A stretch of DNA of 63,839 nucleotides, the filler included, from Deltaproteobacteria bacterium (GTDB taxonomy: Bacteria > JAUYMQ01), in assembly GCA_030698575.1 (NCBI GenBank). It is 11 parts of 11 records of this genome, joined end to end, with 100 filler letters (N's around TTAATTAATTAA, not from the genome) between each part and the next. Parts side by side here need not be neighbours in the genome. Positions count along the whole stretch, not along the records: positions 37,296 to 41,493 come from JAUYMQ010000355.1; 10 more parts are not named here. One strand, given 5' to 3'. Of the stretch, positions 6,833-61,090 are shown in pieces. Numbering within the stretch: the stretch's first letter is position 1; each line of letters begins with the position of its first letter. The position numbers and the translations under genes were made by a program. The notes below the pieces were generated by a model. That model saw only the letters and a list, made by a program, of their open reading frames with translations. It did not search any database and was not told where the DNA came from.

Positions 6833-6932
6833 NNNNNNNNNNNNNNNNNNNNNNNNNNNNNNNNNNNNNNNNNNNNTTAATTAATTAANNNNNNNNNNNN
6901 NNNNNNNNNNNNNNNNNNNNNNNNNNNNNNNN
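6833..6932. other. Artificial contig linker N44-TTAATTAATTAA-N44 (also at 18436, 22342, 32733, 37196, 41494, 45750, 52807, 57556, 60991)
   Basis: Identical 100-nt spacer with six-frame stops occurring ten times. Confidence 0.99.
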
Positions 6933-18333: not shown

Positions 18334-18535
18334 CGCATTCGGGCGGCTGGCGTGTATCTTCCAATAACGCCGACGCGTAGAGCGCCCAACCCCCAAGCCG
18401 GGGCCCCCGTGCACCCTCCATCGGGGGGGCGCGAGNNNNNNNNNNNNNNNNNNNNNNNNNNNNNNNNNNNNNNNNNNNNTTAATTAATTAANNNNNNNNN
18501 NNNNNNNNNNNNNNNNNNNNNNNNNNNNNNNNNNN

Positions 18536-22341: not shown

Positions 22342-22441
22342 NNNNNNNNNNNNNNNNNNNNNNNNNNNNNNNNNNNNNNNNNNNNTTAATTAATTAANNN
22401 NNNNNNNNNNNNNNNNNNNNNNNNNNNNNNNNNNNNNNNNN

Positions 22442-28663: not shown

Positions 28664-28719
28664 GGGGATTGCGTCGTCGGGCCTCAATACTTCCTCGGCC
28701 CTCCTCGCAATGACATGCG
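28664..28719. repeat. REP-like palindromic repeat copy
   Basis: GGGATTGCGTCG...CCTCCTCGCAATGACATGCG. Confidence 0.85.
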
Positions 28720-28885
28720 GGGCGAATGTTACGGCCCCTCGCGCGTCTTGATGGGGTGCGGGGCGGGTGGTAGCATCGTTTTTTCCCGGTTTCACGCGCG
28801 CGGGCGTCGGTCCGGATCTCGCCTCCCACCCCCCAGGGCGCGTACCCGATCCATCCCCGCCCGCATCCTCAAGAGAGCGCCTAGC

Positions 28886-32732: not shown

Positions 32733-32832
32733 NNNNNNNNNNNNNNNNNNNNNNNNNNNNNNNNNNNNNNNNNNNNTTAATTAATTAANNNNNNNNNNNN
32801 NNNNNNNNNNNNNNNNNNNNNNNNNNNNNNNN

Positions 32833-37195: not shown

Positions 37196-37295
37196 NNNNN
37201 NNNNNNNNNNNNNNNNNNNNNNNNNNNNNNNNNNNNNNNTTAATTAATTAANNNNNNNNNNNNNNNNNNNNNNNNNNNNNNNNNNNNNNNNNNNN

Positions 37296-37428
37296 GCTCT
37301 TGGGAATCCCCTCATGCCGCTCGGACGGCGAAGAGATGACTCTGGCAAGACCAGATCCCAGGCGAAACCCAGGAACGGCACCGAAGAAGACAAGGGCGAG
37401 CCCTTGCATCCCGGCGCGCTTTCAGAGA
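37296..37428 (+). mobile_element. 133-bp non-coding end of a multicopy element (probable IS110/IS1111 right end), copy 1
   Basis: Identical to 41594-41726; outward TTGCAT 19 nt from the end; abuts a truncated REP copy; structured. Confidence 0.65.
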
Positions 37429-37597
37429 TGCGAGGAGCGAAGCGACGAAGCAATCCCCTCCATGGCCGCATCTTTAGTTCCGGAGGGTGGCAAGCGCGAA
37501 GGGGATTGCTTCGGCACACCCCTGCGGGGCGTGCCTCGCAATGACATGCGAGTCCTTCCCGCGGGACCAGAGGCCACCCTCCTCGCAATGACACGCG
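37429..37597. repeat. Cluster of REP-like repeats (one 5'-truncated by the element, one inverted partner, one partial)
   Basis: TGCGAGG...GAAGCAATCCCC; GGGGATTGCTTCG...CTCGCAATGACATGCG; CCTCCTCGCAATGACACGCG. Confidence 0.85.
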
Positions 37598-37647
37598 GCT
37601 GATTTCCGCGCGAACAGACCGACTAGCGCACGAGGTTGATTTCTCAA

Positions 37648-38433
37648 ATGGACGAATCACAGGACATCCTGAAGCTGGGAAAACACACGTTCCGATCGCG
37701 GCTCATTGTTGGTTCCGGAAAGTATCCGTCGCTCGACGTGCAGCGCGCGGCCATCGAGGCGTCGGGGGCGGATCTCGTCACCGTGGCCATCCGGCGCGTG
37801 GATCTCCGCGCGCAGGGCGAGGGGAGCTTCATGGCGAGCCTCGATCTGTCGCGCACGCGGCTCCTGCCCAACACCGCGGGCTGCTACACCGTGGACGAGG
37901 CTGTCACGACCGCGCGTCTGGCGCGGGAGCTTTGCGGGACCGATCTGATCAAGCTCGAGGTGATCGGCGACGAGCGCACGCTTTTCCCCGACGCCGAGGC
38001 GCTCCTCCGCGCGGCGGAGATTCTCCTCGGTGAGGGATTCACCGTCCTTCCCTATTCGAATGACGATCCGATCCTGAACCGGAAGCTTGCCGACCTCGGC
38101 TGCCCCGCCGTGATGCCGCTCGGGGCCCCGATCGGCTCAGGGCTGGGCGTGCGCAACCCGACCAACATCCGGATCATCCTCGAAACCGTCGGCGTGCCCG
38201 TGATCCTCGACGCGGGCGTCGGGACCGCATCCGACGCGGCCATTGCCATGGAGCTCGGCTGCTCGGCCGTCCTGATGAACACGGGCATCGCCGGGGCGAA
38301 GGATCCGGTGCAGATGGCGACGGCGATGAAACACGCAGTGATCGCCGGCAGGCTGGCTTACGAAGCAGGACGCATCGAGAAGAAGCTCTACGCCACCGCA
38401 TCGAGCCCGCTCGATCAACGGATCGAGGTCTGA
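37648..38433 (+). CDS. thiG: Thiazole synthase
   Basis: [52 protein letters not shown]. Confidence 0.97.
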
Positions 38434-38441
38434 GGCCGCGC

Positions 38442-39077
38442 GTGGCCGGCGCGATGGGCGGCGTGTACTTCATCACCGACCGGCGCCGGAGCATGGGGCG
38501 GCCGGTGGCCCAGCTGGCCGCGGAAGCAGCGGCCGCGGGCGTCGGGCTCATCCAGGTTCGGGAAAAAGATCTCCCGACGCGCGCCCTCCTGGAACTCCTG
38601 CGAGAGGTGCAGGCAAGTGCCGGGGGCGCGGAGATCCTCGTGAACGACCGCGTGGATCTGGCGCTGGCCGCGGGCTGCGCGGGGGTTCACCTGGGCGCCA
38701 CGACGCTTCCGGTCGCGGCGGCGCGGAAGATCGCGCCGGGGCTTTGCATCGGTTACTCCGCTCACGCCCTCGACGAGGCGCGGCGGGCCGAGGCCGACGG
38801 GGCCGACTTCGTGACCTTCAGCCCGATCTTCAAGACCGACTCGAGCGGCGCGACAAATCTTGCGCCCCAGGGGGTCGGGAAACTGGCCGAGGTCTGCAGA
38901 GCGCTCGGCATTCCGGTTTACGCCCTCGGAGGCGTGACCGCCGGGCGCGTCCCGACGCTGATCGATGCAGGCGCTGCGGGAGTGGCGGTTGTCTCGGCGA
39001 TCACCGAGGCGCCGGACGCCGCGACCGCGGCCCGAAAGCTGGTTGAACTTGCGCGCGGGGCGTCCCCGCGGGAGTGA
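38442..39077 (+). CDS. thiE: Thiamine phosphate synthase (ThiE/TenI family)
   Basis: YFITD, IQVREK, VNDRVDLA, GVHLG, SAH, SPIF.T.S, YALGG; TenI not excluded. Confidence 0.8.
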   Translation: MAGAMGGVYFITDRRRSMGRPVAQLAAEAAAAGVGLIQVREKDLPTRALLELLREVQASAGGAEILVNDRVDLALAAGCAGVHLGATTLPVAAARKIAPGLCIGYSAHALDEARRAEADGADFVTFSPIFKTDSSGATNLAPQGVGKLAEVCRALGIPVYALGGVTAGRVPTLIDAGAAGVAVVSAITEAPDAATAARKLVELARGASPRE

Positions 39078-39081
39078 ACGC

Positions 39082-40353
39082 ATGAACGGACCGACGAAGG
39101 CCACGCGCATCACGCACCCCGACGTCCACGACGCCGCGTTCCTCTCACGCATTGATCCGGAGGTGGCGCGCATCCTTGATCACTCGCTCGCGGGCGGCGA
39201 GATCGCCGAAGCCGACGCCACGACGCTGTTTGACACCGAGGGCGCGGAGATGTCGGCGCTCCTGGCGGTCGCGGATCACCACCGGCGGGACGCCAACGGC
39301 GATCTCGTCACCTTCGTGTTCAACCGCAACATCAACTTCACGAATCGCTGCTTCGTCGGCTGCCAGTTCTGCAACTTCAAGGTCCGCGACGCGAGCCCGA
39401 AAGCCTACTATCAGGATATCGAGGCGGTCGCCCTCCGGGCCGACGAAGCGGTCGAGCGCGGCGCCACCGAGGTGTGCATCCAGGCGGGCCTCAACAAGGA
39501 TCTCCCCGGCAACCACTACGAGGCCGTGCTGCGGGCGATCAGGTCGCGCCACCCCTCTCTCCACATCCACGCCTACTCACCCATGGAAATTCATTACGGC
39601 GCGAAGCGCACCGGCAGAAACGTTCGCGATCATCTCCTGGCACTGAAGGACGCCGGGCTCGACACCATCCCCGGCACGGCCGCGGAGATCCTGGTCGACG
39701 AGGTGCGCAAGCGCATGTCGCCCTACAAACTCACTGTGGACGAGTGGGTCAACGTCGTCACAGCCGCGCACGAGGCGGGAATTCCCTCGACGTCCACCAT
39801 CATGTTCGGCCACATCGAGGAGCGGTGGCACTGGTCGCGCCACCTGTCGGTCATCCGGGATCTTCAGAAGCGGACCGGCGGCATCACCGAGTTCGTCCCC
39901 CTCGCCTTCGTTCACACGCTCACACCTCTCTATCTCGCCGGCGGCTGCCGGCCCGGGCCCACGGCGGAAGAGAAGATCAAGATGTACGCTGTGAGCCGGC
40001 TGTTCCTGCGAGGCTGGATCGACAACATCCAGGTCTCCTGGCCCAAGCTCGGGCACGCGCTCGCACAGACCTGCCTCGACGCAGGCGCGAACGATTTCGG
40101 CGGAACGCTGATGGAGGAGTCGATCTCGCGCATGGCCGGCGCCGTTCACGGGCAGTACGTGAGCCCGGATGCGTTCCGTGAGATGATCTACGGGATGGGG
40201 CGTCTGCCGGCCCAGCGGAGCACGCTCTACCGGCTGCTGCGCATCTTCCCCAAAGCGGGGCAGCCCCCGATCGTGCCCGACGAACTCCGTATTCCCTCGA
40301 CCGCCGGCGCGCCGGCCATCGACGAGATGGCTTTCTCGGAGGCGGCGGCGTGA
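39082..40353 (+). CDS. cofH: FO synthase subunit CofH (radical SAM)
   Basis: NRNINFTN, CFVGCQFC, IPGTAAEIL, NIQVSWPKLG, GANDFGGTLMEESISRMAGA. Confidence 0.85.
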   Translation: MNGPTKATRITHPDVHDAAFLSRIDPEVARILDHSLAGGEIAEADATTLFDTEGAEMSALLAVADHHRRDANGDLVTFVFNRNINFTNRCFVGCQFCNFKVRDASPKAYYQDIEAVALRADEAVERGATEVCIQAGLNKDLPGNHYEAVLRAIRSRHPSLHIHAYSPMEIHYGAKRTGRNVRDHLLALKDAGLDTIPGTAAEILVDEVRKRMSPYKLTVDEWVNVVTAAHEAGIPSTSTIMFGHIEERWHWSRHLSVIRDLQKRTGGITEFVPLAFVHTLTPLYLAGGCRPGPTAEEKIKMYAVSRLFLRGWIDNIQVSWPKLGHALAQTCLDAGANDFGGTLMEESISRMAGAVHGQYVSPDAFREMIYGMGRLPAQRSTLYRLLRIFPKAGQPPIVPDELRIPSTAGAPAIDEMAFSEAAA

Positions 40354-40361
40354 AGTTTTGG

Positions 40362-40429
40362 GCATAAAGATTTGAACAACGGAATCTTTGGAAGACGGGC
40401 ATAAGATTTGAGCATAAAGATTTGAACAA
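40362..40429 (+). repeat. Three AT-rich direct repeats GCATA(A)AGATTTGA(ACAA)
   Basis: Copies at 40362-40379, 40399-40411 and 40412-40429. Confidence 0.85.
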
Positions 40430-40462
40430 AAGATTCTTGGTTAGCCACAACGTGGAGGCAGC

Positions 40463-41493
40463 ATGATCGGACAGGGCGGACAGCTCATTGCGCGGGCGCT
40501 GAAGAACGAGGGGGTCGACACGATCTTCACGCTCTGCGGCGGGCACGTGTTCGCGATCTACGACGGGTGCATCGACGAGGGCATCAAGGTGGTCGACGTC
40601 CGGCACGAGCAGGCGGCGGCGCACGCGGCCGACGCCTGGGGGCGCATCACCGGGACCCCGGGCGTGGCGGTGGTGACGGCGGGCCCCGGCGTGACCGACG
40701 CGGTCACGGGCGTGGCGAACGCCTGGCGCGCCTCGTCGCCCATGCTCTGCATCGGCGGCCAAGGCCCCTTTTCAATGTTCAAGAAGGGGGCGCTCCAGGA
40801 GATGGATCACGTGGCGCTCATGGCGCCCATCACCAAGTGGTCGGACCGCTGCTTCGAGACGCGCCGGCTGCCCGAGTACGTGGCCATCGCGATGCGCCAC
40901 GCGATCACGGGCCGGCCGGGCCCGGCGTTTCTCGAGGTGCCGCTCGACGTCATGATCAGCAGCTCGCCGATCGACGAGGTCGAGTTCCCGACGAACTACT
41001 ACACGAACGCCAAGAGCTACGGCGATCCCGAGTACGTAGAGATGGCCGTGAAGCTCCTTCAGAGCGCGCAGAAGCCGGTCGTCATGGCGGGCTCATCCGT
41101 CTGGCTCGGTCGCGCGCAGGACGCGCTTCGCCGCTTCGTCGAAGAGGCGGATCTGCCGGTCTATCTGAACGGCATGGGGCGCGGCTGCATGCCGCCCGAC
41201 CACCCGAACTTCTTCAGCCACACACGCGGCTTCGCGCTCGACTCCTGTGACGTGGCCATCGTGATCGGCACGCCGCTCGATTTCCGGCTCGGCTACGGCA
41301 AGTCGATCCCCGAAAACGCAAAGATCATCCAGATCGACATCGACCCCCTCGACATCGGCGTGAACCGCGGCGCCGACGTCGGCATCGCCGGGCACGTGGG
41401 CGCGATCCTCGATCAGATCGTGAAGGCGATCCCCGAGATCGCCGGCCCGCGCGAGGGGCGGCGGCACACGGGGTGGATCGAGGAGATCCGCGC
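40463..41493 (+). CDS. TPP-dependent enzyme (acetolactate synthase / 2-hydroxyacyl-CoA lyase-like), 3'-truncated
   Basis: FTLCGGH, DVRHEQAA, TAGPGVTD, GALQEMD, DFRLGYG. Confidence 0.9.
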
Positions 41494-41593
41494 NNNNNNN
41501 NNNNNNNNNNNNNNNNNNNNNNNNNNNNNNNNNNNNNTTAATTAATTAANNNNNNNNNNNNNNNNNNNNNNNNNNNNNNNNNNNNNNNNNNNN

Positions 41594-41726
41594 GCTCTTG
41601 GGAATCCCCTCATGCCGCTCGGACGGCGAAGAGATGACTCTGGCAAGACCAGATCCCAGGCGAAACCCAGGAACGGCACCGAAGAAGACAAGGGCGAGCC
41701 CTTGCATCCCGGCGCGCTTTCAGAGA
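41594..41726 (+). mobile_element. 133-bp non-coding end of a multicopy element (probable IS110/IS1111 right end), copy 2
   Basis: Identical to 37296-37428; followed by a different REP copy (41727-41756) cut at the same position. Confidence 0.65.
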
Positions 41727-41872
41727 TGCGAGGAACGAAGCGACGAAGCAATCCCCTGCGCGCTCGGCATCCTTCTCGGCGGCGGAGCCCGCGTGGGTCC
41801 CGCTGTCTTGACGCTCTCCGGGTCCGGGTCTACCGTGAGCGGCGCCGGCGGAAGAAAGGAAGGAGGCTCCTC

Positions 41873-45160: not shown

Positions 45161-45849
45161 TCGCTGTTTTGCCACGGGGCGCATGCCCGTGGGGGCCCCC
45201 GGGAGCAATCCTTTCCCGGGGGCCGTTTTGCGCCTGGCGCCGGGTGTCACAGGCGGGTGATAAACGAAGAAGCAGGCCCCTCGGACGAGCCGCCGCCGGG
45301 CCCGGCGCTTCCCCCCCGCCAGTATTTCTTGACCGGGTCCGTCCGATCGGGTTTTCCTGACTGAAATTCTCCAGAGAGGCTCCCTGCCGTGACTGGACTG
45401 TCGCCCATATTCGAGCCGCTGCGGAAGGCGCGTCGCGCCACAACGCATCCGTCGTGCATGCGTCCGGATCGTCGGGCGGCGCCCGATGCGGGCGAGGCCG
45501 CCTGGGTCGCCTTTCTGGCCGAGGCCCGGGCCGCGCTCGAAGCGAGCGGGAACTGGAATGGAAAGAACGGGAGAGCAATCACGAGGCGTTTTGCGGCGTC
45601 GCTGGCCGCGCGCTTCGGCGCCTGTCCGGAGAGCCCGCGCGGGCGCAGGCGCGCGTCCACGACAGCGGCGGACGAGGGCCGGCATGTGCGGGCGTGGCTC
45701 GGCGGCTGGATCTTCGTGCGCCACGATGCGTCAGCCGATCCGGCGGCGCNNNNNNNNNNNNNNNNNNNNNNNNNNNNNNNNNNNNNNNNNNNNTTAATTA
45801 ATTAANNNNNNNNNNNNNNNNNNNNNNNNNNNNNNNNNNNNNNNNNNNN

Positions 45850-47434: not shown

Positions 47435-47652
47435 CGCATGTCATTGCGAAGCGGGCCGCCCGAGGTCCCGCGCGAAGCGCGGGCCGAGAACTGGCCGATA
47501 CGACCCGACGAAGCAATCCCATGGCAGCCGCCCGCATGTCATTGCGAGGCGGGCCGCAGGCCCGACGAAACAATCCCGTGGCAGCGCCACCGGTCCCGAG
47601 CACGAAGGGGATTGCTTCGGCGCCCCTCCAGGGCGCCTCGCAATGACATGCG
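47435..47652. repeat. Cluster of three REP-like repeats (two direct, one inverted)
   Basis: CGCATGTCATTGCGA...GA(A/G)CAATCCC twice, then GGGATTGCTTCG...CTCGCAATGACATGCG. Confidence 0.88.
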
Positions 47653-52806: not shown

Positions 52807-52945
52807 NNNNNNNNNNNNNNNNNNNNNNNNNNNNNNNNNNNNNNNNNNNNTTAATTAATTAANNNNNNNNNNNNNNNNNNNNNNNNNNNNNNNNNNNNNN
52901 NNNNNNGCTCTTGCCGCTTGCGCGGCGTACGTAAAGGGAGAGGAT

Positions 52946-57539: not shown

Positions 57540-57655
57540 TCTGCTTATACTATGANNNNNNNNNNNNNNNNNNNNNNNNNNNNNNNNNNNNNNNNNNNNT
57601 TAATTAATTAANNNNNNNNNNNNNNNNNNNNNNNNNNNNNNNNNNNNNNNNNNNN

Positions 57656-60990: not shown

Positions 60991-61090
60991 NNNNNNNNNN
61001 NNNNNNNNNNNNNNNNNNNNNNNNNNNNNNNNNNTTAATTAATTAANNNNNNNNNNNNNNNNNNNNNNNNNNNNNNNNNNNNNNNNNNNN

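Follow-up and report, generated by a model that had tools for sequence, protein, structure and literature searches.

The genes thiS, thiG, thiE and cofH, followed by a gene for a TPP-dependent enzyme, form a real operon that is conserved by a small uncultured lineage, and the cofH product encoded in the window (the whole stretch of DNA analyzed, 63,839 nucleotides with filler) is, judged by curated models and tree placement, a true CofH and neither MqnC nor MqnE. It is plausible, if tentative, that CofH in this lineage is used twice, for FO and to provide the thiazole synthase ThiG with 2-iminoacetate. The strongest and independent support for the general idea that CofH can feed ThiG comes from a second, low-GC lineage, which suggests that CofH-type enzymes are able to supply the glycine-imine block of the thiazole ring.

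Background

The usual role of CofH is in synthesis of the deazaflavin cofactor F420. ThiG requires 2-iminoacetate (dehydroglycine), and textbooks give two routes to this glycine-imine unit of the bacterial thiazole, through ThiH in anaerobes and through ThiO in aerobes. ThiH, the 2-iminoacetate synthase, is a radical-SAM tyrosine lyase that acts in anaerobic thiazole synthesis. It releases p-cresol, in contrast to the transfer of the hydroxybenzyl group by CofH. ThiO is an FAD glycine oxidase that needs O2 and glycine and has a fold unrelated to CofH. CofH is reported to abstract H from the amine of tyrosine and to break tyrosine into fragments (PMC8498797), and another paper describes ThiH as mechanistically similar to CofH, with a dehydroglycine co-product that feeds thiazole synthesis (PMC7771511). 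A literature search covering papers available without subscription returned no published description of CofH-ThiG coupling.

Organization of the locus

The window consists of 11 contigs joined artificially by spacers of the form N44-TTAATTAATTAA-N44. Two of these spacers (unstranded, 37196..37295 and 41494..41593) flank the contig carrying thiG-thiE-cofH, which truly begins at 37296, ends at 41493 (4198 bases) and has just 352 bases upstream of thiG. Its first 164 nt (37296..37459, + strand) are a repeat that recurs with 99.4% identity at the beginning of the next contig (41594-41757) and is probably the cause of the assembly break.

thiG (37648..38433, + strand; 261 aa) has GAGG 11 nt 5' of its ATG, scores 362.8 bits against PF05690 (cut-off 23) and is 82-88% identical to thiG of two related genomes, G001 and G002. 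thiE (38442..39077, + strand; 211 aa), for thiamine-phosphate synthase, has a GTG start 8 nt past the thiG stop and scores 154.7 against TIGR00693 (cut-off 145.1) and 172 bits against PF02581; its score against the TenI model, 134, falls below the cut-off of 251. cofH (39082..40353, + strand; 423 aa), for a CofH-clade radical-SAM enzyme that cleaves tyrosine, starts with ATG 4 nt past the thiE stop and is followed by an A+T-rich spacer of 109 nt (40354..40462, + strand) in which a word of approximately 18 nt is repeated. The last gene (40463..41493, + strand) encodes a TPP-dependent enzyme of the acetolactate synthase / 2-hydroxyacyl-CoA lyase superfamily (PF02776, PF00205), which is cut by the contig end and retains only its N-terminal and central domains. 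No terminator-like site was found anywhere on contig 37296-41493.

A sequence-only reading of this DNA had described thiG, thiE and cofH as sharing an orientation, as spaced by 8 and 4 nt and as followed by a TPP-dependent enzyme, all of which is as claimed. Its observation that neither thiH nor thiO lies beside these genes is true but nearly empty, because the contig spans only 4.2 kb of an artificially joined stretch and absence at the locus carries little weight. Unlike in relatives, no thiS was found in the 352 nt before thiG, and tblastn with ThiO, ThiS, CofG, CofD and CofE of relatives gave no match in the other 10 contigs (~60 kb).

Identity of the radical-SAM protein

The cofH product scores above the cut-offs of two curated CofH models (TIGR03551, 475.4 against 374.1; NF005609, 450.5 against 426), contains PF04055 and PF19288 (the CofH/MqnC C-terminal domain) and carries the radical-SAM CxxxCxxC motif at C90, C94 and C97, which is invariant in 29 sequences. 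MqnC and MqnE share the superfamily branch TIGR00423 with it, and it misses both of their cut-offs (324.1 against 428.1 and 283.7 against 434.55, respectively). A quick IQ-TREE tree of 60 proteins (44 CofH-side rows and 16 Mqn rows) separated the CofH side from the Mqn rows at support 98, with MqnC and MqnE on the opposite side of this branch, and recovered the clade of the window protein at support 100, which removes the earlier concern that the protein might group with MqnC or MqnE. The only relative with a solved structure is an MqnE (6xi9).

Against the ThiH model (TIGR02351, cut-off 380 bits) the protein gave no match at E 0.001. By sequence it therefore falls outside the ThiH family, a different radical-SAM subfamily, though it may work in a ThiH-like manner; its gene does match thiH in operon position, thiH normally adjoining thiG (e.g. 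in G006, G011, G029 and G038). In curated-model scores, CxxxCxxC motif, CofH_C domain and tree placement the protein is the same as canonical CofH, and it differs in having P instead of V at residue 321, so that it reads SWPK in place of the SWVK found in 19 of 20 canonical CofH proteins. The gene differs from canonical cofH in its separation from cofG and its place within a thiS-thiG-thiE operon. A fusion (Rosetta-stone) search recovered four long homologues (533-651 aa) extended at the N-terminus, three of them with a second radical-SAM stretch in the extension; no ThiG domain was present in these proteins.

Conservation of gene order

Gene order was compared in close relatives. thiG-thiE lies upstream of cofH in all five for which upstream sequence is available (L001, G002 contig C101, L065, L067 and L068; CofH 73-79% identical to that of the window), so the synteny that the earlier reading had proposed to survey is conserved in the close clade. 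thiS precedes thiG in 4/4, and the TPP-dependent enzyme follows cofH in all three that have downstream sequence (L001, L002 and L066). Between thiE and cofH, the window has a gap of 4 nt where L001 has an overlap of 4 nt. In 12 of 18 genomes having both genes, cofG is found within 1 kb of cofH; in G001 and G002 they are on separate contigs, and the 9-kb G001 contig is without cofG.

The main alternative to dual use is that there is no coupling at all: an ordinary F420 cofH landed behind thiE in the clade ancestor and was passed on along with the operon, and ThiG is fed by ThiO or a divergent oxidase. Such an accident of gene order with a ThiO source is nearly as likely as dual use. The distribution of the linkage favors it, since the thi-linked cofH genes are restricted to a single narrow clade (11 protein clusters, all at ≥72% identity and on contigs <15 kb, that of the window included) and neither thiG nor thiE was found within 1.5 kb of any of seven more distant CofH genes. 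So does regulation: no TPP riboswitch was found in 37296-41493 at E up to 1 or upstream of the operon in L001, L101, L065, L067 and L068, and the sole TPP riboswitch of G001 precedes thiC, so that thiamine regulation of cofH is unsupported in this clade. Against an accident, the order of the five genes and the overlap between thiE and cofH have been kept even though ThiE identity has fallen to 59-65%, and the genes on either side of cofH are thiamine-themed.

A further possibility is that the link runs from cofH to the downstream enzyme, for example through consumption of glyoxylate arising by 2-iminoacetate hydrolysis, or that a TPP consumer is simply grouped with TPP synthesis. The gene does follow cofH in 4/4 loci, including the window, and is the best conserved of the set (86-89% identity in L001 and L002; 74% over 127 residues of L066). 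All three TPP domains are present in the full-length L001 orthologue (551 aa, 89% identical), whose best model is NF004516 (585.7 against 587); the curated models reject glyoxylate carboligase (181 against 791) and oxalyl-CoA decarboxylase (317 against 557), and nothing connects the substrate of the enzyme to CofH. This possibility is considered improbable.

Gene content of related genomes

The sequence-only reading had called for a genome-wide check for thiH, thiO and the remaining F420 genes, which was run on G001 and G002 with a divided outcome. thiH was not found in either genome, and each carries cofG, cofD and cofE with a single cofH; G002, however, encodes a ThiO that passes the curated cut-off (291.7 against 250.8). 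ThiO would give ThiG the same metabolite as CofH, so CofH is not the sole possible 2-iminoacetate source in the clade and is not needed for this in G002. The ThiO of G002 thus favors an accident of gene order, as does the full F420 gene set with a single cofH, which explains retention of cofH in both relatives. G001 points the other way, having no match to ThiH or to ThiO (best 45 bits), but it is a fragmented MAG of 2.5 Mb in several hundred contigs and the missing ThiO may reflect incompleteness.

CofH-clade genes in a low-GC lineage

Orphan CofH-clade genes from a low-GC lineage (G192, G221-G256), which are publicly named 'CofH' or 'FO synthase subunit 2', resemble the cofH of the window in CofH-clade membership, thiS/thiG linkage and SWPK. 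In 29 of 30 loci the gene adjoins thiS/thiG, and two gene orders occur. Unlike in the window clade, a TPP riboswitch lies directly upstream, in 14/14 scanned loci of order cofH-thiS-thiG (11 at or above the gathering score), and cofG and cofD were not found in the genomes tested: cofG, cofD, thiH and thiO were each found in 0/5 genomes of the lineage, and G192 and G023 were likewise negative. The orphan CofH of G192 scores 42 against the ThiH model (cut-off 380). Taken together, the linkage, the riboswitch and the missing cofG, cofD, thiH and thiO indicate that a member of the CofH family very probably feeds ThiG in this lineage. The orphan and window clades are separate in the tree, so the thi linkage arose independently in the two. 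Here selection has brought genes of the CofH clade together with thiS-thiG for a role in thiamine synthesis, which argues against an accident behind thiE in the window clade.

A closer parallel would be that CofH of the window clade works chiefly or exclusively in thiazole synthesis, as an analogue of ThiH comparable to the orphan proteins, and that FO is no longer its main product. Its position in a thi operon is consistent with this, as is SWPK, which is common to both clades and counts in favor of dual use as well. Among the 120 proteins listed, SWPK occurs in 12, comprising the query and all 11 matches at ≥64% identity, with V in the other 108; in the orphan clade it occurs in 18/18 proteins and in 68/68 pattern-matching clusters (a 69th, partial cluster is without a pattern match). 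It was also found in 7/51 other CofH clusters, so the shared substitution is weak evidence. Elsewhere the clades differ: the orphan clade has diverged at 12 of 80 columns conserved in canonical CofH, and 11 of these 12 still carry the canonical residue in the window clade. Both relatives also keep cofG, cofD and cofE with no second cofH, so a thiazole-only CofH would leave the F420 pathway without its first enzyme. A CofH devoted to thiazole is therefore very improbable for the window clade, and is rated lowest of the readings considered.

Survey of ThiG-bearing genomes

A survey of 220 genomes was carried out, in which ThiG holders were split into those with a clear CofH (17) and those with no CofH (85). 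Borderline 'CofH' matches at 363-378 bits were all scored as CofH-negative; the two examined were rejected as an MqnC (G022) and an MqnE (G036). Neither ThiH nor ThiO was matched in 29 of the 102 ThiG-bearing genomes, comprising 11/17 with CofH and 18/85 without (Fisher p 0.0007, or 0.03 with curated cut-offs only, relatedness and completeness being ignored in both), a difference in favor of dual use. Three of eight ThiG-bearing controls (Caulobacter, Thermus and Deinococcus) also showed neither enzyme at the thresholds used and have no CofH, so 'no match' is unreliable as a sign of absence. ThiO is carried by 6/17 genomes with both CofH and ThiG, which again is in line with an uncoupled cofH.

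Proposed coupling of F420 and thiamine synthesis

In the dual-use reading, CofH of the window lineage would be a genuine FO-synthase subunit that cleaves L-tyrosine with a 5'-deoxyadenosyl radical. The 4-hydroxybenzyl part would be passed by CofH to 5-amino-6-ribitylaminouracil, for CofG, and the other tyrosine fragment would be 2-iminoacetate, the substrate that ThiG needs. Two cofactors, FO/F420 and thiamine, would then draw on a single radical-SAM reaction, and at least one relative would have an alternative source in ThiO, which depends on oxygen. Use of the co-product by ThiG is most likely why the only cofH of the lineage left cofG and became fixed behind thiE. For dual use the stoichiometry is a difficulty, since thiamine supply would be tied to the output of FO.

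The proposal of the sequence-only reading, that CofH supplies the ThiG substrate at this locus, gains from the true CofH, the conserved gene order, the lack of a thiH match in both relatives and the orphan lineage, and loses from the ThiO of G002; for the window organism itself, we infer that 2-iminoacetate from CofH may reach ThiG. A broader formulation is offered with a little less assurance than dual use in the window lineage: CofH-clade lyases would be a third natural source of 2-iminoacetate for ThiG, with orphan CofH replacing ThiH/ThiO under a TPP riboswitch and, in F420 producers including the window lineage, a single turnover yielding both precursors, so that F420 and thiamine synthesis would be stoichiometrically linked.

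If true, a CofH-based route would fill part of the gap left by the 29 of 102 ThiG genomes that lack a match to ThiH and ThiO. Annotations as 'CofH / FO synthase subunit 2' would need rereading in genomes without cofG; 68 orphan-type protein clusters carry these names or none. The window lineage would be an example of one radical-SAM turnover supplying two cofactor pathways.

Gene content of the thi-cofH contig

Ten TTAATTAATTAA words flanked by twenty 44-N runs mark the window as 11 contigs joined with artificial spacers, not continuous genome, and genes across a spacer (6833-6932, 18436-18535, 22342-22441, 32733-32832, 37196-37295, 41494-41593, 45750-45849, 52807-52906, 57556-57655 and 60991-61090, each N44-TTAATTAATTAA-N44) are not genomic neighbours. 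The contig at 37296-41493 (4198 bases) has four + strand genes: thiG (37648-38433; PF05690, 362.8 bits), thiE (38442-39077; TIGR00693, 154.7, cut-off 145.1, with the TenI model at just 134 against 251), cofH (39082-40353; 423 aa) and, from 40463, a gene for a TPP-dependent enzyme that is cut by the contig end after its N-terminal and central domains. The intergenic gaps are 8, 4 and 109 nt, and no terminator-like site was found on this contig. The co-orientation and tight spacing of thiG, thiE and cofH and the TPP-dependent enzyme downstream, as described in the sequence-only reading, were thus confirmed. The stretch that separates the TPP enzyme from cofH (40354-40462) is A+T-rich with two copies of an ~18-nt word and may be a promoter or operator; it varies in length, with 109 nt in the window but 82 nt and about 26 nt, respectively, in L001 and L002, two relatives' loci.

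A 164-nt repeat opens two consecutive contigs (37296-37459 and 41594-41757, 99.4% identical), has weaker or shorter copies near 47599-47652 and 28699-28720, and looks like a dispersed element that breaks assembly. Because it is shared with the next contig, the assembly appears broken just upstream of thiG, so the remark that these genes have neither thiH nor thiO next to them is true on the contig but says little. An enoyl-CoA hydratase ORF on that next contig (41612-42643) matches its family from residue 90 only, its long N-terminal extension crossing the repeat, and the contig is not syntenic with the close-relative genome G001, where the TPP enzyme is followed by Yip1 and HtrA.

Identity of the radical-SAM protein

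The window protein scored above both curated CofH cut-offs (TIGR03551, 475.4 against 374.1; NF005609, 450.5 against 426). Assignment as MqnC (324.1 against 428.1) or MqnE (283.7 against 434.55) was rejected on scores below cut-off, and the ThiH model gave no match at E 0.001. A tree of 60 proteins (quick IQ-TREE search, with SH-aLRT as the sole support measure) split 44 rows on the CofH side from 8 MqnC and 8 MqnE proteins with support of 98; in it, the window protein and five close relatives formed one clade with support of 100. Grouping with MqnC or MqnE, named in the sequence-only reading as a refutation of the proposed coupling, was not seen, the window protein lying on the CofH side.

CofH as a candidate source of 2-iminoacetate

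CofH releases 2-iminoacetate according to the enzyme's EC entry, as Philmus et al. reportedly also found in 2015. In PMC8498797, CofH takes a hydrogen from the tyrosine amine, tyrosine fragments and the hydroxybenzyl radical adds to diaminouracil; ThiH is described in PMC7771511 as mechanistically similar, with a dehydroglycine co-product that feeds thiazole synthesis. In the window's lineage, tyrosine cleavage by CofH would yield 2-iminoacetate as a co-product, and ThiG would use it. We hold this use by ThiG tentatively, at slightly under an even chance; it would explain why the sole cofH came to be separated from cofG and retained within the thi operon.

Conservation of gene order

Scans of genomes and metagenomes with the CofH protein yielded matches at 72-79% identity in two genomes and on four metagenome contigs. 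The thiG-thiE-cofH synteny was borne out in close relatives, with thiG-thiE upstream of cofH in all five that have upstream sequence (L001, from G001; contig C101 of the second close-relative genome, G002; L065, L067 and L068), L001 having a 4-nt thiE/cofH overlap. Directly 5' of thiG lies thiS (4/4 relatives' loci). ThiE identity across these loci is just 59-65%, which means that the gene order has outlasted real divergence. Neither thiG nor thiE was found within 1.5 kb of any of seven more distant true CofH genes fetched, and among the canonical CofH compared the thi-cofH linkage is limited to the window clade (the window protein and its close relatives); of 18 genomes with both genes, 12 instead have cofH and cofG no more than 1 kb apart. 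A search of 5.8 billion proteins gave, among the matches listed, 11 clusters at at least 72% identity, the window's own included and all on short contigs, the next matches listed falling to 64% or below. The TPP enzyme follows cofH in all three relatives with downstream sequence (L001, L002 and L066); that the position of cofH reflects a link to this enzyme instead is a smaller rival explanation and improbable.

Thiamine and F420 genes in close relatives

In G001 and G002 no thiH was found (best matches 24 and 31 bits, on their cofG genes), and cofG (430 and 437 bits), cofD, cofE and one cofH each are present. With cofG, cofD and cofE in the genome and a single cofH, CofH is expected to serve a complete F420 pathway as its FO synthase subunit and not to be a spare paralogue; a CofH serving thiamine only is a smaller rival that we consider very improbable. 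The gene content expected from the sequence-only reading was borne out for the absence of thiH and the presence of cofG, cofD and cofE but, in G002, not for ThiO, which there scores above its curated cut-off (291.7 against 250.8) from a gene adjoining an arsenite methyltransferase, not thiamine genes. No ThiO was found in G001, a fragmented 2.5-Mb MAG (best match 45 bits). An inherited accident of cofH position, with ThiO supplying ThiG as the G002 ThiO could do there, is nearly as likely as supply by CofH. The sole TPP riboswitch found in G001 sits before thiC, and none was found before the thiS-thiG-thiE-cofH operon in the window or five relatives' loci.

Survey of related genomes

Use of the CofH co-product by ThiG was also considered across 220 genomes related to G001, with clear CofH defined as at least 399 bits, ThiH scored at E 1e-70, and borderline CofH matches (363-378 bits) counted negative because two that were examined were MqnC and MqnE. 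ThiG was present in 102 genomes, clear CofH in 20 and both in 17. Among these 17, ThiH was found in none, ThiO above cut-off in six and neither in 11; among the 85 with ThiG and no clear CofH, ThiH was above cut-off in 34, a weaker ThiH-like gene lay beside thiG in 7, ThiO was above cut-off in 21 and borderline in 5, and none was found in 18. The contrast (11/17 versus 18/85) gave a Fisher p of 0.0007, ignoring relatedness and completeness, and 0.03 under curated cut-offs alone; without two genomes of the orphan clade described below, these became 0.004 (lenient criteria) and 0.09. The 11 genomes are spread over several separate CofH clades in the tree and include G110 (3.35-Mb contig; best oxidase match 108 bits, far from thi genes). 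Three of eight ThiG-bearing controls (Caulobacter, Thermus and Deinococcus) likewise lacked ThiH and ThiO at these thresholds and also lacked CofH, so a negative search often reflects a sequence that has diverged beyond the model's reach.

Two further thiG loci were recorded. In G036, a 329-aa radical-SAM protein (L103:8005-8994; Radical_SAM and Radical_SAM_C) of neither the ThiH nor the CofH family is encoded after thiS-thiG-thiE and may be another ThiG partner; ThiH and ThiO were not found above cut-offs in this genome. In G041 (L094:5992-7533), ThiS and ThiG domains share a single 513-aa open frame, reflecting a thiS-thiG fusion or else a start codon called wrongly in this high-GC DNA.

An orphan CofH clade in a low-GC lineage

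G192 and G023 (33-35% G+C), two of the 17 genomes with CofH and ThiG, have a CofH-clade gene (TIGR03551, 399 and 405; MqnC, 358 against 428) but no cofG. An orthologue at 63-90% identity was found in 36 small low-GC genomes among 151 relatives of G192 searched. The lineage is represented by L112-L141 (G192, G221-G256 and G023); L104:6598-8824, minus strand, is an example in which a TPP riboswitch controls thiS-thiG with the CofH-clade gene. The 30 loci fetched had the order cofH-thiS-thiG in 26, thiS-thiG-cofH in three and no thi gene nearby in one. A TPP riboswitch lies directly 5' of the cofH-like gene in all 14 scanned loci of the order cofH-thiS-thiG, 11 at or above the Rfam gathering score and three at 51-54 against 54.3. 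None of five orphan-lineage genomes tested yielded cofG (the top match, at 60 bits, being the CofH-like gene), cofD, thiH or thiO. The orphan proteins form one clade (support 100) within the CofH side, apart from the window clade; their public names are CofH, FO synthase subunit 2 or none, with ThiH given to 0 of 69 clusters at at least 64% identity. The simplest reading of these genomic data is that a CofH-type tyrosine lyase makes 2-iminoacetate for ThiG in this lineage. The "third route" to thiazole proposed for the window is thus supported by comparative genomics, but in a different organism without F420. One TAA each was flagged inside the CofH match in G239, G243, G246, G248, G252, G254 and G256 (order thiS-thiG-cofH); the 370-aa ORFs extracted from this sub-clade are open, and the TAA probably belongs to the 3' end of the preceding thiG.

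A substitution common to both clades

Against 20 canonical CofH proteins (80 alignment columns at least 90% conserved), the orphan clade has another fixed residue at 12 columns and the window clade differs at two. One change is common to both, V to P between invariant W320 and K322 (SWVK to SWPK). Proline occurs in 12 of 120 proteins listed (the query plus every one of its 11 hits of at least 64% identity; valine in the other 108), in 68/68 orphan-family clusters matching the pattern and also in 7/51 more distant CofH clusters. The shared SWPK is a hint, not proof. At the other 11 diverged positions of the orphan clade the window clade is canonical, which fits a CofH still making FO. P0016, a 360-aa CofH with SWPK and 64% identity to the window protein, is named "2-iminoacetate synthase ThiH" by JGI.

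A search of openly accessible literature returned no description of CofH feeding ThiG or of riboswitch-controlled cofH. The proposal draws on an enzyme family and a metabolite that are both already known; what this search did not turn up is the use made of them, and the orphan lineage is a stronger example of it than the window's own case.
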